Shown here: positions 1 through 6,000 of the stretch, piece after piece
How positions within the stretch are numbered: position 1 is the first letter of the stretch
Layout of the letters: every line of letters starts with the position of its first letter
Assembly (NCBI RefSeq): GCF_054482595.1
Contig: NZ_CM137008.1
Direction: 5' to 3' (one strand)
Length of the DNA: 64,000 nucleotides
Made by a program: the position numbers

Positions 1-3000
1 ATCGTCGGCCTGGTCATTGCGGGAGGCCTGATATTCCTGCTGCGACGCTACTGGAGCGGAACGAAAAAGCGTGACCGTATTCACCGCATTCCGGAAGATC
101 GCAAAAAGAAAAAAGGCAAACGTAAGCCGCCATTCTGGACGCGTATTGCGCTGATTGTTTCCGCTGCGGGCGTGGCGTTTTCGCACGGCGCTAACGACGG
201 GCAGAAAGGGATCGGCCTGGTGATGCTGGTACTGGTGGGGATTGCCCCTGCTGGCTTCGTCGTCAATATGAACGCGTCCGGCTATGAAATTACCCGTACC
301 CGCGATGCCGTCACCAACTTCGAACACTACCTGCAACAGCATCCTGAACTGCCGCAGAAGTTGATTACGATGGAACCTCCATTGCCTGCGGCATCTACTG
401 ATGGCGCGCAAGTGACGGAGTTTCACTGTCATCCGGCAAATACCTTTGATGCGATTGCGCGCGTTAAAACGATGCTGCCAGGCAATATGGAAAGTTACGA
501 GCCGTTAAGCGTGAGTCAGCGCAGCCAGCTGCGCCGCATTATGCTGTGCATCTCTGATACCTCCGCGAAGCTGGCGAAACTGCCAGGCGTCAGTAAAGAA
601 GACCAGAACCTGCTGAAAAAACTTCGCAGCGATATGTTAAGCACCATTGAGTACGCTCCGGTGTGGATCATCATGGCGGTAGCACTGGCGCTCGGCATTG
701 GCACCATGATTGGCTGGCGTCGTGTAGCGATGACCATCGGTGAGAAGATTGGTAAGCGCGGCATGACGTATGCGCAAGGCATGGCGGCACAAATGACGGC
801 GGCAGTGTCTATCGGCCTTGCCAGTTATATTGGGATGCCCGTCTCTACAACACACGTACTCTCATCTGCCGTAGCAGGGACGATGGTGGTGGACGGCGGT
901 GGGTTACAGCGTAAAACGGTAACCAGCATCCTGATGGCATGGGTGTTTACTTTACCGGCGGCAATTTTTCTTTCTGGTGGGCTGTACTGGATAGCATTGC
1001 AGTTGATTTAACCTTCCTGAAATGCCCGGTCCTGGCGATCGGGCATTTCCATTTTTGACTAGTGATAACCACGCGCGGTCATAAAATCCGTAATCGCTTT
1101 TTCTGCATCAATCAGCACCTGTTCCAGTGGCTGATTGGCGTCGATATCAACCAGTTGTGCACCACCAAAGGTTAACTGTGGCGTTATGGCTATCTTTCTT
1201 GCCAGCGATTCCCGTTTATGGTCGGGTTTACGCATGCAGGCAACTTCAAGGTCAACATTGAGTTTGATGACCAGATCAGGCTTATGGCTCGCCATCCAGT
1301 GAAACGCTTTACGTTCCTGGCTTGCCAGCCATGAGACAAAACGACCACCTTCAACGTTAGGTGGGAACACCGTACCATCGTAAGCGCCAGGAATTTGGTC
1401 CTGAGGATAACGGTCGGTTAGAACAATTAACCCGCGACGACGACAGGCAAGCATATGACGAAAGCGCAGTAAGCGACGGGCGACAAACGCTGTAATTACC
1501 AGCGCCGGAACTGGTCCAGGCAATTTTTTTGCTGTTTTCACCTGATTTCGTTCAATTGTTTTATGTAAGGATTTTCCCATCAACGGTAATTTTGTCACTG
1601 CACGACCGACATTTCCGGCTTGTTTTCCTAAATGAACTCTTTCGGCAGCACCATATTTTTCGACAACGGTAATGAGATGTTCACACACCGTTGACTTGCC
1701 TGAACCATCGCTACCAATAACGGCAATTAATGGAGGTGTTATTGACTGCATGAATATATCCTTAAATTTAAATATCCATCCAAAATATTTATTTGGTTAA
1801 TATGTTTTTATGAAAGCGTAATTCAGGTCAATGTCACAATTAACCATTGTCACAATAAGGTTGAACGGATATTCTGAGCACGGACCACGTAATATTCAAT
1901 ACATTATTTACTGCCGGGTTTTTCGTGAATCAACGTAATATGTCAATAATTAATTCCACGCCAGTGCGTGTTATTGCCATTGTAGGATGTGATGGTTCAG
2001 GTAAATCGACCCTCACGGCAAGCCTGGTAAATGAACTGGCAGCAAGAATGCCAACAGAACGCATTTATCTCGGGCAATCGTCCGGGCGAATTGGCGAATG
2101 GATTTCACAGCTCCCTGTTATTGGCGCACCTTTTGGGCGTTATCTGCGAAGTAAAGCGGCACATGTGCACGAAAAGCCCTCAACACCGCCTGGCAATATT
2201 ACTGCGCTGGTTATCTATCTGCTTTCCTGCTGGCGGGCGTACAAGTTTCGCAAAATGTTGTGTAGAAGCCAGCAAGGCCATCTGCTCATCACCGACCGCT
2301 ACCCGCAGGTTGAAGTGCCGGGTTTTCGCTTTGATGGCCCGCAATTGGCAAAAACCACGGGCGGTAACGGTTGGATAAAAATGTTAAGGCAGCGCGAGTT
2401 GAAGCTGTACCAATGGATGGCGTCTTATTTACCCGTATTGTTGATTCGTCTTGGCATTGATGAACAAACCGCGTTTGCGCGTAAACCTGACCACCAACTG
2501 GCAGCGTTACAGGAAAAAATCGCCGTTACGCCGCAACTGACATTCAATGGCGCAAAGATCCTTGAACTGGATGGTCGGCAACCAGCCGATGAAATTCTGC
2601 AAGCGTCACTACGCGCAATTCACGCCGCGCTTTCCTGATCACCAAAATGGATAGGGGATGATTTAACGAATGGATGCACTACAAACACAAACTGTTATTA
2701 GTACAACCGCGCCGCAGCCCAACTACATTCCGGGGCTGATTGCGGTGGTCGGGTGTGATGGCACCGGTAAATCCACGCTGACCACCGACCTGGTGAAATC
2801 GCTGCAACAACACTGGCAAACCGAGCGCCGCTATTTGGGGCTGCTCTCCGGCGAAGACGGCGACAAAATCAAACGATTGCCGTTGGTTGGCGTCTGGCTG
2901 GAACGGCGACTGGCGGCCAAATCCTCGAAAACCCAAAGCATGAAAACCAAATCTCCGGCGCTATGGGCGGCGGTGATTATGTACTGCTTCTCGCTGCGAA

Positions 3001-6000
3001 GAATGGCGAATCTACGCAAGGTTCAGCGACTGGCGCAAAGTGGCGTTCTGGTGGTCAGCGATCGCTTCCCGCAGGCTGAAATTTCGGGCTTTTATTATGA
3101 CGGACCGGGGATCGGCGTCGAACGTGCGACCGGGAAAATAAGCATGTTTCTGGCGCAGCGCGAACGGCGTTTATACCAACAAATGGCGCAATATCGCCCG
3201 GAATTAATTATTCGCCTGGGCATTGATATTGAGACTGCCATCTCCCGCAAGCCTGACCATGACTATGCCGAGCTGCAGGACAAAATCAGTGTTATGTCGA
3301 CGATTGGCTATAACGGCACAAAAATTCTTGAGATTGATTCCAGAGCGCCCTACAGCGAAGTGCTGGAACAGGCACAGAAGGCGGTTTCTCTGGTTGCCAT
3401 CGTTTCTGACCGCCGAAGTTTAACTTAAGGCTGGCGGGATACTTTTTACTATCAACGATAAGGTCAGGCTGAATTGGCGGGTTTTAACATCAAACATTGG
3501 TTTGCAGATGGCGCGTTTCGCACCATTATTCGCAATAGCGCCTGGTTAGGCTCCAGTAATGTCGTGAGCGCTTTGCTGGGGCTGTTGGCGCTCTCGTGTG
3601 CCGGTAAAGGGATGACGCCCGCCATGTTTGGCGTACTGGTGATTGTGCAATCGTACGCCAAGTCGATCAGCGATTTTATTAAGTTTCAGACATGGCAGCT
3701 GGTGGTTCAGTACGGAACGCCAGCCTTGACCAACAATAATCTGCAGCAATTTCGCAATGTCGTCTCATTTTCCTTCTCGCTGGATATCGTCAGCGGCGCG
3801 GTGGCGATTGTCGGCGGCATTGCCTTACTGCCATTCCTTTCCCATTCATTAGGTCTGGATGACCAAAGCTTTTGGCTGGCGGCGCTGTATTGCACGCTCA
3901 TTCCTTCAATGGCTTCCTCCACGCCGACCGGCATTCTGCGTGCGGTAGATCGCTTTGATTTGATTGCTGTACAGCAGGCGACGAAACCTTTTCTGCGCGC
4001 AGCGGGGAGCGTCGCAGCCTGGTATTTTGACTTTGGTTTTGAGGGTTTTGTTATTGCCTGGTACGTGTCGAATCTGGTTGGCGGCACCATGTACTGGTGG
4101 TTTGCCGCGCGCGAATTACGCCGCAGAAATATCCATAACGCCTTCAAATTGAATCTGTTTGAGTCTGCCCGACACATTAAAGGCGCGTGGAGTTTTGTCT
4201 GGTCAACCAACATTGCCCACTCCATCTGGTCGGCGCGTAACTCGTGCAGCACAGTGTTGGTGGGGATCGTGTTAGGACCCGCTGCCGCCGGGTTATTTAA
4301 AATCGCCATGACATTCTTCGACGCCGCCGGAACGCCAGCGGGTTTGCTGGGTAAAAGTTTTTACCCAGAGGTGATGCGTTTAGATCCGCGCACCACCAGA
4401 CCGTGGTTGTTAGGCGTGAAGTCCGGTTTACTGGCGGTCGGAATCGGTATTCTGGTGGCGCTCGCGGTGTTGATCGTCGGCAAGCCGCTCATTTCGCTGG
4501 TGTTTGGCGTTAAGTATCTCGAAGCGTATGACCTGATTCAGGTGATGCTGGGCGCAATTGTGATCTCGATGCTGGGCTTCCCTCAGGAGTCATTGCTATT
4601 GATGGCGGGAAAACAGCGCGCTTTTCTCGTGGCGCAAACCATCGCCTCAATCGGCTACATCGTATTGCTGTTCATGTTCTGTCATCTGTTTGGCGTGCTG
4701 GGAGCAGCGTTTGCTTACTTCGGTGGGCAATGTCTGGACGTGGCGCTCTCGTTAATTCCAACCTTAAAGGCATTTTTTCAGCGCCATTCCTTGCTTTATA
4801 ACGCAGCCGGAGAGAAATCCTGATGATGAGAAAATATTTCCCGCTTGAGGCGAGCGAGCATCTATTTGTTGCGATTGAGGAAGATGATGTTGTTGATGCC
4901 CAGGTCAGTTTGCCGCCGACTATCGCACTAAGTTGTACCACCGAAATCATCCATGATAATTACGCGTTATGCCTGCAATTCTGGCTCAATGGCGTTGATC
5001 GTCAGGAATTACTTCGTTTAATTCGCAAACAAGCCAAAGGCGATGAGCTGACGACAGACGAGCGTAAACAGTTTAAATACATGCGAGCGCGCTACAAGCA
5101 CCTGCGTTTTGCGCAACGGCTGTATTTAAAGAAGCATCAGGCCGGATTTTTATTCGGCAAAACGACCGTTTTTCTGGGACGTTTTCAGGACGGATTTCGT
5201 AACGGTAAGAAAAATATTGTGTCGTATTACGGCAACCTGTTACGAATTTATTTAAGCTCTCCGGTCTGGTCGTTGGTGAACTATTCATTACGCCATAGCC
5301 AGTTAGAAAGCGTAAGCGGTTTTATTGCCTATCGGCAAAAGCAAATGCATGCCCTGAAAGAGATAATTGCCAAACCGCGACTAACCGGCAGGGAATTTCA
5401 TGATGTGCGAAAAATCATCAGCCAGCAGGTTTCTTATTACGACACCTTAAGATCGCTTGATCCTGAAAATAAAGAGGCGTTACAGATTTCCCGTTTCCTC
5501 GCCGCCATTAATGGCCTGATGGGGGATAAACACGACGACATGGTGGCGGATGATATGGAAAACCGCCAGTCGTATGATGCACCGGTGGCGCTGGATAGCG
5601 ATATTCGCCAGCGCTTAGAGCTGCTGATTTCGCGTTTTCCGCTATAACCGGAGCAATGATGTCATCTCGTTTGATTATTGCGCTGATTATCATGCTCTTA
5701 GCCCCGGGTGTGCAGGCACACAATTTCGTCACTGGCAAAACGGTTACCCCTGTTTATATTCAGGAAGGCGGCGAGCTGCTTCTGAATAGCGACGACGAAA
5801 TTCACTACCAAAAGTGGAACAGCACACAATTGGCGGGAAAAGTCCGAATTATCCAGTATATCGCCGGGCGTAAGTCGGCGAAGAAAAAGAACTCACTGTT
5901 AATTAAAGCGGTTGAAGCGGCAAACTTTCCGCAGGATCGTTTTCAGCCCACCACCATTGTGAACACTGATGATGCCATCTTTGGTACTGGCTATTTTGTC

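Follow-up and report, generated by a model that had tools for sequence, protein, structure and literature searches.

The window analysed here, a stretch of 64,000 nucleotides, carries near its start three genes, yghT, yghS and yghR, in the company of genes for the synthesis and export of a sphingolipid (Table 1). Strain XH990 is 100% identical to the window across the first 12 kb, and RefSeq gives its yghT, yghS and yghR homologue coordinates that agree with the open reading frames of the window.

Table 1. The three paralogs and the surrounding features of the sphingolipid locus, with positions in the window
Feature	Position	Strand	Description
yghT	1059-1751	-	230 aa; P-loop putative phosphotransferase of the thymidylate kinase superfamily, lineage T
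yghT-yghS spacer	1752-1924	.	173 bp, AT-rich, divergent intergenic; presumed promoter region
yghS	1925-2638	+	237 aa; paralog, lineage S
yghR	2670-3428	+	252 aa; paralog, lineage R, DRF replacing DRY
yghQ	3474-4823	+	MOP/Wzx-like flippase; NCBIfam MOP flippase family E 5.5e-8; intact here, truncated in K-12
hypothetical protein	4823-5647	+	274 aa; CHAD-like predicted fold; gene most often beside the trio
YtfJ-family protein	5656-6219	+	TIGR01626 E 1.9e-63, above cutoff; hydrophobic N-terminus, signal-peptide-like by eye
lptF2	6250-7320	+	LptF paralog (RefSeq annotation); candidate sphingolipid extractor with lptG2
lptG2	7317-8396	+	LptG paralog (RefSeq annotation)
spt	8431-9603	-	ceramide backbone gene (annotation and ORF)
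acpR	9603-9851	-	ceramide backbone gene (annotation and ORF)
cerR-like reductase	9883-10797	-	ceramide backbone gene (annotation and ORF)
aasR	10794-12482	-	ceramide backbone gene (annotation and ORF)
yghO	12879-14021	+	homologue of bacterial ceramide synthase (cerS; acyl-CoA N-acyltransferase)

Three paralogs of the dTMP kinase superfamily

YghT, YghS and YghR are full-length paralogs with a similarity far beyond chance, as seen in pairwise BLASTP between YghT and YghS (37% identity over 217 aa, E 5e-53), YghT and YghR (34%, E 6e-47) and YghS and YghR (45%, E 2e-63). All are basic (pI 9.6-9.9) and have no transmembrane segments. The initial annotation, which had seen three P-loop paralogs of similar length (230-250 aa) at 1059-3428 with yghT inverted relative to the other two, is borne out in these respects, the measured lengths being 230, 237 and 252 aa and yghT diverging from yghS and yghR across the 173-bp spacer. 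Its list of shared motifs, on the other hand, needs an amendment. The Walker A segment GxDGxGKST is present in all three, in the form G(S/C)DG(S/T)GKST (GCDGTGKST being one instance), but the DRYP segment belongs to YghT and YghS (TDRYPQ) and not to YghR, which has SDRFPQ. An RKPDH lid motif is common to the trio.

The three proteins have a P-loop kinase fold of the NMP-kinase/dTMPK type and belong to the dTMP kinase superfamily. In this regard, dTMP kinases are their best matches in both structure and sequence, with 2plr, a homologue of cPPK3, among the best structural ones. A profile of 133 Ygh sequences finds solved thymidylate kinases at E 7e-9 and 2plr at E 6.5e-4, and the RefSeq product name for yghT and yghS is ‘dTMP kinase’. 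Nevertheless, the trio scores only 24.4, 22.1 and 32.4 bits with TIGR00041 against a cutoff of 83.25 bits, and its best i-E-value with Pfam Thymidylate_kin (PF02223), 0.05, is not significant; E. coli carries a separate housekeeping tmk elsewhere. Housekeeping nucleotide kinases, which had been named beforehand as the finding that would count against a role in lipid metabolism, are therefore not what these scores describe. The earlier preference for a kinase fold over ABC ATPases also holds, given the DRY and lid motifs: ABC models cover only ~25-35 residues around the P-loops (E 0.01-0.09), and Pfam and NCBIfam scans contain no full ABC domain or ABC signature. More broadly, scans of the trio with Pfam, NCBIfam and PADLOC returned only sub-threshold dTMP-kinase or P-loop-only matches, with no match to the LCB5/DAG-kinase catalytic domain (DAGK_cat), and the proteins do not qualify as PPK2 by fold and PF03976. 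Two candidate identities were discarded, namely homology to CpgB, the Caulobacter ceramide kinase, since that enzyme is of the LCB5/DAG-kinase family with a GGDG motif, and a role in defence, since a PADLOC scan of the neighbour families gave nothing relevant.

Among the 133 sequences D14, G15, G17, D112 and R113 never vary, and K18 is kept in at least 90%. Indeed, the P-loop lysine, the DR motif and lid residues R173 and K174 are kept in each of the lineages T, S and R. Position 42, which aligns with the dTMP-phosphate-binding arginine (REPGG motif) of thymidylate kinases, is lysine in T, glutamine in S and leucine in R, at least 85% conserved per lineage, and this lineage-specific alignment suggests that the three may have different acceptors. 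F88 and R92 align with the thymine-stacking phenylalanine and the base-binding arginine of P. falciparum TMPK; the segment that follows the DRY motif, PQxExPGxxDGP, is unlike that of thymidylate kinases. In the predicted structure of YghT, the part that would bind the acceptor (residues 40-78) is modelled with low confidence, at pLDDT 61-70.

The sphingolipid locus and its partner genes

E. coli BL21 homologues of the backbone genes spt, acpR, cerR and aasR have been characterised, with yghO/ECD_02850 given as the aca/cerS gene (PMC9386255). Related loci also hold spt, acpR, cerR, aasR, cerS (yghO), a MOP flippase and LptF/G paralogs; the yghQ flippase is found in 44 of 79 loci, and in Enterobacterales yghR abuts it. 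The trio had been described as lying beside a lipid locus, and the linkage stands, but the trio is in fact a syntenic part of the locus, alongside sphingolipid genes in dozens of genera. The initial annotation did not recognise that the locus is one for sphingolipid, that the trio is ancient or that its commonest neighbour gene encodes a protein that is CHAD-like in predicted fold.

YghT, YghS and YghR are all present as separate orthologous lineages in 56 of the 79 related loci, and trio-bearing loci occur in Enterobacterales, Xanthomonadales, Halieaceae, Betaproteobacteria and one Myxococcales MAG. Each lineage is monophyletic in a neighbour-joining tree without bootstrap support (45, 31 and 35 sequences); identity is 55-58% inside lineages and 34-41% across them, and at 34 positions all three share one residue, with conservation of at least 85% in each lineage. 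Judged from these sequences and their distribution across classes, the earlier ‘triplication’ is right as to three paralogs but is ancient, not local. The most widespread member is yghT, which outside Enterobacterales often adjoins the CHAD-like gene, and in seven loci it is the only one of the trio seen, mostly with that gene and with no spt within 10 kb.

The CHAD link of this commonest neighbour is one of fold comparison only, its predicted structure containing the pair of four-helix bundles typical of CHAD, a polyphosphate-binding domain. Pfam, PF05235 included, gives no match among 41 members of the family, the family profile gives none among PDB sequences, hhalign against the CHAD domain of E. 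coli YgiF returns a probability of 0.2, and a comparison of one half of the protein with the other for an internal repeat is negative (E 0.13); one UniRef entry labels an orthologue ‘CHAD domain-containing protein’. Within the family R60, R88, K92, H93, R95, H105, H193, R196 and H237 are invariant, and K197 is at least 90% conserved.

Ygh-like relatives of ~500 aa occur in polysaccharide (Wzx/Wzy) rather than lipid clusters, directly downstream of the flippase gene, and in one relative, P0223, a MOP flippase and a Ygh-like domain are naturally fused. The ~260-aa N-terminal domain of the ~500-aa fusion proteins has no Pfam match; a relationship between this domain and the CHAD-like protein was considered and rejected, there being no similarity.

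In E. coli itself, at least 80% of the 12-kb stretch is kept in 4064 of 5426 complete genomes (about three quarters), while in K-12 the trio has been left as orphans, the rest of the locus having been lost by an IS5-associated deletion. The 1501-2000 block that covers the yghT-yghS spacer has a GC content of 0.38. Counts from the promoter and terminator scan are no better than those from shuffles, a promoter-like match in the spacer at 1847-1875 (+) is likewise no better than chance, and the only scan match that looks meaningful is a hairpin at 1019-1049, between pitB and yghT. yghS is among the SlyA-induced genes, with K and O table marks (PMC5797941); these marks are taken here as published H-NS datasets, in which case the sphingolipid locus may be H-NS silenced. 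The literature searched contains no paper on the function of yghR, yghS or yghT and no biochemical or genetic data for any member, and no report of a sphingolipid from E. coli was found in it.

A proposed head-group module and its alternatives

The E. coli locus contains no glycosyltransferase, CDP-alcohol transferase or CpgB-type kinase, which leaves the trio as the only candidates for making a head group. Moreover, 17 loci have a DgkA paralog (Pfam DAGK_prokar, E 5e-32) after cerS, and distant loci contain PAP2 phosphatases, LpxE-like ones among them, and a methyltransferase of lipid phosphates that resembles LmtA; such neighbours point to a lipid phosphate. The trio and its CHAD-like neighbour, then, probably build a phosphate-rich head group on the sphingolipid. 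In its specific form, on which our judgement is close to evenly divided, the proposal is that YghT, YghS and YghR are three non-redundant putative phosphotransferases which, with the CHAD-like protein, form a module that makes the head group of the E. coli-type sphingolipid. A lipid-pathway role with distinct steps had already been suggested, and the context agrees with it: the lineages are monophyletic, are co-inherited with sphingolipid genes and keep their catalytic residues. The paralogy, the fold, the catalytic residues kept in every lineage and the linkage to sphingolipid genes are observed; the kinase activity, the lipid substrate and the order of steps are inferred. Counting against the proposal are the low-confidence acceptor region of the YghT model, the room that F88 and R92 leave for a nucleotide substrate, the loci that showed only yghT and no spt within 10 kb, the polysaccharide clusters of distant relatives, and the fact that no E. 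coli sphingolipid was found in the literature searched, the locus being one that H-NS may silence.

The soluble, basic proteins would act at the cytoplasmic face of the inner membrane, adding phosphoryl groups from ATP to ceramide-derived substrates. The typical chemistry of the dTMPK fold is the phosphorylation of phosphomonoesters, for example dTMP to dTDP, such that the likeliest substrate is ceramide-1-phosphate or a phosphorylated derivative of it. A DgkA-type kinase would supply ceramide-1-phosphate, lineages T, S and R would each catalyse a different step, the MOP flippase YghQ would flip the anionic product, and LptF2/LptG2 would extract it for the outer membrane. A bolder version, which we think unlikely, is that of a lipid-anchored oligophosphate. 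Here the ceramide-1-phosphate made by the DgkA-type kinase would receive from each of YghT, YghS and YghR one phosphoanhydride-linked phosphate, giving ceramide di-, tri- or tetraphosphate or longer; the CHAD-like protein would hold the chain, YghQ and LptF2G2 would deliver it to the outer membrane, and PAP2 phosphatases or LmtA-like methyltransferases would trim or cap it in some species. A literature search found nothing on ceramide di-, tri- or polyphosphate.

Of the alternatives, the one that survives best, albeit as an unlikely one, is that the three proteins assemble into a hetero-oligomeric polyphosphate kinase, or act as a polyphosphate-dependent kinase, while the CHAD-like protein binds polyphosphate, on the model of the Sulfolobus saci_2019/2020 operon; polyphosphate would be made or consumed for the lipid pathway, and the lipid would not be the direct acceptor. 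E. coli already has PPK1, and the Ygh profile lies nearer to canonical thymidylate kinases than to the cPPK3 homologue, both of which tell against this idea, as does the fold-only basis of the CHAD assignment. In its favour are the strongly basic kinases, the CHAD-like fold of the partner and the precedent of PPK3, a pair of thymidylate-kinase-like paralogs whose genes accompany one for a CHAD protein (PMC12995831). The regulatory subunit of PPK3 is, however, without the DRX arginine, which is invariant (R113) in all three Ygh lineages, and of the PPX, SixA and Pst genes of the PPK3 operon context (PMC12995831) none was recognised among the annotated recurrent neighbour families, singleton ORFs apart.

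It is improbable that the trio consists of transport accessories, P-loop NTPases that regulate or energise YghQ or LptF2G2 with no modification of the lipid. Such a role would sit well with the P0223 fusion, the position of the ~500-aa relatives, the adjacency of yghR and yghQ and the absence of an LptB of its own from the sphingolipid locus. Against this, the fold, DRY motif and lid are hallmarks of phosphotransferases, the ABC signature is absent, MOP flippases are not known to be ATP-driven, and the trio persists in loci with no lptF2/G2 found within 10 kb. It also counts against this role that in Caulobacter, for which there is evidence on LptF2/G2, LptF2G2 works with the housekeeping LptB (bioRxiv 10.64898/2026.04.12.717747).

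Similarly improbable is a set of nucleotide kinases, phosphorylating NMPs or some small molecule that resembles a nucleotide, for instance so that an activated donor is available for attaching the head group, or serving as extra dTMP kinases. The retention of F88 and R92 leaves room for a nucleotide substrate, in line with the structural and sequence matches and the RefSeq name, but the sub-cutoff TIGR00041 and Pfam scores, the post-DRY segment and position 42 all depart from thymidylate kinases. Nor would nucleotide supply readily explain three conserved lineages tied to sphingolipid genes, and no nucleotidyltransferase that could use such a donor is present in the locus. Redundant or decaying duplicates are very hard to credit, notwithstanding the orphaned trio of K-12 and a virulence-screen table in which K-12 deletion strains of yghT, yghS and yghR pass without comment in the part of the source that holds it, since the lineages are separately conserved across classes and most complete E. 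coli genomes keep the stretch.

The phosphate head-group proposal would turn three ‘putative ATP-binding proteins’ and one ‘hypothetical protein’ into a defined four-gene module spanning several proteobacterial classes, for a lipid that, above all in its head group, is so far undescribed. If the trio acts on ceramide phosphate, bacteria would have a second way to make anionic sphingolipids, one not homologous to Caulobacter CpgA-D, and the thymidylate kinase superfamily would have a new lipid-directed branch. By analogy with PPK3 and CHAD, envelope lipids that carry oligophosphates are a possibility; if real, they would matter for the charge of the outer membrane, for susceptibility to polymyxin and for recognition by the host.

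Comparison with known systems

With Tmk (TIGR00041/PF02223) the trio shares the fold, the GxxGxGK[ST] P-loop and the DR[YHF] motif, yet it lies below the family cutoffs, differs in the post-DRY segment and at the position of the phosphate-binding arginine, and comprises three paralogs within a lipid locus. The resemblance to PPK3 (Saci_2019/Saci_2020; PMC12995831) lies in side-by-side paralogs of dTMPK fold, distinct from the housekeeping Tmk and with a CHAD-type neighbour. PPK3, however, has two subunits, whereas the Ygh proteins are three, all with the catalytic arginine and no evident regulatory subunit, and their context is sphingolipid synthesis and export, with no PPX or SixA recognised among the annotated recurrent neighbour families. 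CpgB, which starts an anionic head group (PMC10331486), is also a kinase in a bacterial sphingolipid locus and is a possible functional counterpart. Its fold and GGDG motif are unrelated to the Ygh P-loop, and the E. coli-type locus is without CpgA-D homologues. LpxK, the 4'-kinase of lipid A, offers a further likeness to the proposed role: it is a P-loop enzyme acting on a membrane lipid, and it phosphorylates a precursor of an outer-membrane lipid on the cytoplasmic side, prior to flipping and to export by Lpt.

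The Ygh trio and its fold

The open reading frames yghT, yghS and yghR lie where the initial annotation had placed three related P-loop genes, and pairwise comparison shows their products to be full-length paralogs, YghT sharing 37% identity with YghS (E 5e-53) and 34% with YghR (E 6e-47), and YghS sharing 45% with YghR (E 2e-63). All three proteins have a pI of 9.6-9.9, have no transmembrane segment and carry the motifs G(S/C)DG(S/T)GKST, (T/S)DR(Y/F)PQ and RKPDH. Of the shared motifs described initially, therefore, the P-loop is common to the trio and DRYP is found in YghT and YghS, YghR having DRF rather than DRY.

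A Pfam scan of the trio returned nothing significant, and the NCBIfam dTMP-kinase matches are sub-threshold, at 22-32 bits where the cutoff is 83.25. Since a profile of 133 family members matches solved thymidylate kinases by sequence (E 7e-9), and since matches to ABC models are confined to the P-loop, the trio is assigned to a kinase fold rather than to the ABC ATPases, as had been proposed. The AlphaFold model of YghT has a pLDDT of 90.3, with residues 40-78 as its only uncertain stretch. The RefSeq product name 'dTMP kinase', given to yghT and yghS (1059-2638) despite scores far under the family cutoff, is probably an over-annotation; both this name and that of the lptF and lptG paralogs are likely over-specific.

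Features of the locus in annotated order, with window coordinates
Feature	Coordinates	Strand	Remarks
pitB			convergent with yghT
Hairpin	1019-1049		GC-rich, 13-bp stem, between pitB and yghT; T-run after it on the plus strand; resembles a terminator, shared or bidirectional
yghT	1059-1751	-	230 residues
yghS	1925-2638	+	237 residues
yghR	2670-3428	+	252 residues
yghQ		+	intact; annotated 'lipopolysaccharide biosynthesis protein'
Hypothetical (CHAD-like) gene	4823-5647	+	274 residues
YtfJ-family gene	5656-6219	+	TIGR01626, E 2e-63; N-terminus hydrophobic, resembling a signal peptide
lptF and lptG paralogs (lptF2, lptG2)	6250-8396	+	RefSeq 'LPS export ABC transporter permease LptF/LptG'
spt		-
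Acyl carrier protein		-
NAD-dependent epimerase/dehydratase-family protein		-
Fatty acyl-AMP ligase		-
yghO
glcC			after yghO

Three lineages within a sphingolipid locus

The neighbouring genes were correctly taken for a lipid locus, which is, more exactly, the E. coli sphingolipid locus. Its spt, acpR and aasR homologues in E. coli BL21 have been characterised biochemically, in a study that lists yghO for the ceramide N-acyltransferase and the epimerase-like gene for the reductase (PMC9386255). The locus of E. coli UTI89 is shown beside those of Caulobacter and Sphingomonas in a 2026 preprint, which reports that the Caulobacter LptF2 and LptG2 paralogs are required for sphingolipid export and rely on the housekeeping LptB. 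The papers retrieved contain no discussion of yghR, yghS or yghT.

Over its first 12 kb the window shows 100% identity with E. coli strain XH990. Of 5426 complete E. coli genomes, 5115 have matches to these 12 kb and 4064 contain at least 80% of them. In K-12 MG1655 (L081, 3129043-3132408, compared with window 3474-14021), IS5 (insH9) has replaced the DNA that runs from the yghO 3' end to a truncated yghQ, such that aasR, cerR, acpR, spt, lptG2, lptF2 and the ytfJ-like and CHAD-like genes are all lost. In other words, yghRST in K-12 MG1655 are orphan remnants, and, with the rest of the locus missing, K-12 phenotypes of these genes are of limited use for judging their native role.

Scanning a single genome for each species gave 248 encoding stretches, from which 79 loci were kept and the YghT, YghS and YghR orthologues present in each were called by tblastn with the window's proteins. 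All three lineages occur in 56 of the 79, many of the other loci being truncated contigs, and the arrangement, with yghT divergent from yghR-yghS, is in most cases shared. The trio is found in Enterobacterales, Xanthomonadales (Dyella, Rhodanobacter, Luteibacter), Halieaceae, Betaproteobacteria (Methylotenera, a Rhodocyclaceae MAG) and a Myxococcales MAG; on a short Desulfuromusa contig, YghS is accompanied by two YghT-like copies, YghR not being captured. Members of one lineage share 55-58% identity, against 34-41% between lineages, and a neighbour-joining tree, drawn without bootstrap, resolves the lineages as pure clades of 45, 31 and 35 sequences. On these sequence comparisons the triplication is ancient. 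Certain loci hold yghT with no yghS, yghR or spt within 10 kb (L046, L055, L064, L065, L068, L069, L078), mostly alongside a CHAD-like gene, a PAP2 phosphatase and RND genes.

When all ORFs of the 79 loci were clustered, with counts limited by the 10-kb flanks, the commonest companion of the trio was the family of the hypothetical gene (53 of the 78 loci with a Ygh-family ORF), followed by spt (47), cerR (45), yghQ (44), lptG2 and ytfJ-like (38 each), aasR (29, fragmented ORF calls excluded), cerS (27) and lptF2 (26). Of the 18 hypothetical-gene copies from outside the Enterobacterales, 12 directly adjoin a Ygh gene. The YtfJ-family gene, where kept (38/79), lies between the CHAD-like gene and lptF2.

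The hypothetical protein has no Pfam or NCBIfam match and none among PDB sequences. Its AlphaFold model is all-helical and of very high confidence (pLDDT 95.1); Foldseek gave a weaker result, with 6qv5 at rank 3 (probability 0.96, TM 0.49, E 0.26). An orthologue is named 'CHAD domain-containing protein' in one UniRef entry, and ten Arg, Lys and His positions are invariant, or nearly so, across the family. Polyphosphate is bound by CHAD domains, modules that consist of two four-helix bundles and carry conserved basic patches (PMC6537752). Since comparison of its profile with the YgiF CHAD and a test for internal repeats were both negative, the protein is called CHAD-like by predicted fold only.

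A proposed phosphorylated head group

Several recurrent neighbours, in loci L047, L053, L055, L059, L060, L065, L068, L071, L079 and other non-enterobacterial loci, are akin to lipid A remodelling enzymes. They comprise an LpxE-like and a second PAP2 phosphatase, an acyl hydroxylase of OlsC/LpxO type, a lipid-phosphate O-methyltransferase resembling LmtA, an LptA-like protein and a GT4 glycosyltransferase. Judged by sequence only, the OMF, two RND pump and MFP families make up an RND efflux set. A DgkA paralog (Pfam DAGK_prokar, E 5e-32), a candidate ceramide kinase, lies just behind the cerS (yghO) homologue in 17 of the 79 loci (L012, L021, L023, L026, L027, L029, L031, L034 and nine more); classically, E. 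coli DgkA phosphorylates ceramide in vitro. Together, the lipid-A-type neighbours and the DgkA paralog argue for phosphate on the lipid. The E. coli locus has no DgkA paralog, and its candidate head-group enzymes are the trio and the hypothetical protein only.

On the preferred, though tentative, reading, each of YghT, YghS and YghR would be a distinct ATP-dependent phosphotransferase, the three together decorating the ceramide of this locus. Ceramide made by Spt, AcpR, AasR, CerR and YghO would be decorated by the trio at the cytoplasmic face of the inner membrane, flipped by YghQ and then extracted by LptF2G2; every chemical step of the head-group mechanism is one that we infer. The typical substrate of this fold is a phosphomonoester, which it phosphorylates, and, as many related loci carry DgkA, the most plausible acceptor would be ceramide-1-phosphate or a derivative. 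Judging by the CHAD-like partner, either the product or an intermediate may be rich in phosphate.

Among the alternatives, a polyphosphate module like PPK3, the archaeal heteromeric polyphosphate kinase, is unlikely, and an accessory to a flippase or transporter is more doubtful still. A profile search found 2166 Ygh relatives among 1.84 billion representatives, including a large group of ~500-aa proteins in which a ~260-aa N-terminal domain of no assigned family is fused to a Ygh-like domain, together with MOP-flippase (P0223) and GT4 (P0256) fusions and tandem doubles. Two ~500-aa proteins directly follow a flippase gene in Wzx/Wzy polysaccharide clusters that also hold sulfotransferases, GT4, a further P-loop protein and, in one case, Wzy. 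These fusions and contexts tie this branch of the superfamily, taken as a whole, to flipped, lipid-linked envelope glycoconjugates, which lends an accessory role some plausibility; against it stand the phosphotransferase motifs of the trio. The N-terminal domain of the ~500-aa relatives (P0162, P0168, P0171, P0178; loci L082-L085) has a TDxDLLVD motif and, judged by eye, may be nucleotidyltransferase-like.

True nucleotide kinases are an equally improbable reading. In thymidylate kinase, the Arg of the REPGG motif binds the phosphate of dTMP. Position 42, which aligns with this Arg (by HMMER, in a low-confidence region) and would be its equivalent, is among the few positions fixed differently per lineage, as K (T), Q (S) or L (R). 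A further 34 positions, K18, D112, R113, D124, E145 and the lid R173-K174-P175-D176-H177 among them, are at least 85% conserved in every lineage with the same residue in all three, such that activity is predicted for each of the lineages; that they are redundant remnants is hardly credible. Some probability is kept for substrates or roles beyond these readings.

The fold, the superfamily and the sphingolipid nature of the locus are already known. By the searchable literature, what appear to be new are the trio as an ancient three-lineage module of the sphingolipid locus, the predicted activity of all three lineages, the CHAD-like predicted fold of their commonest companion, and the parallel with PPK3. 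With these, the head group of the E. coli sphingolipid, itself undescribed, becomes directly testable.

Comparison with PPK3

PPK3 of Sulfolobus acidocaldarius is built from the products of two genes that carry thymidylate-kinase annotations and share an operon with PPX, SixA and a CHAD protein (PMC12995831). The DRX arginine, absent from the regulatory PPK3 subunit (PMC12995831), is kept in all three Ygh lineages; the Ygh family is closer by sequence to canonical thymidylate kinases than to the cPPK3 homologue; and no PPX, SixA or Pst was recognised among the annotated recurrent neighbour families. On the first two counts the trio was rejected as a member of PPK3, and the third agrees within the families annotated. 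The resemblance of trio and partner to PPK3 is real: in both systems, thymidylate-kinase-fold paralogs, apart from the housekeeping enzyme, lie beside a CHAD-type gene.
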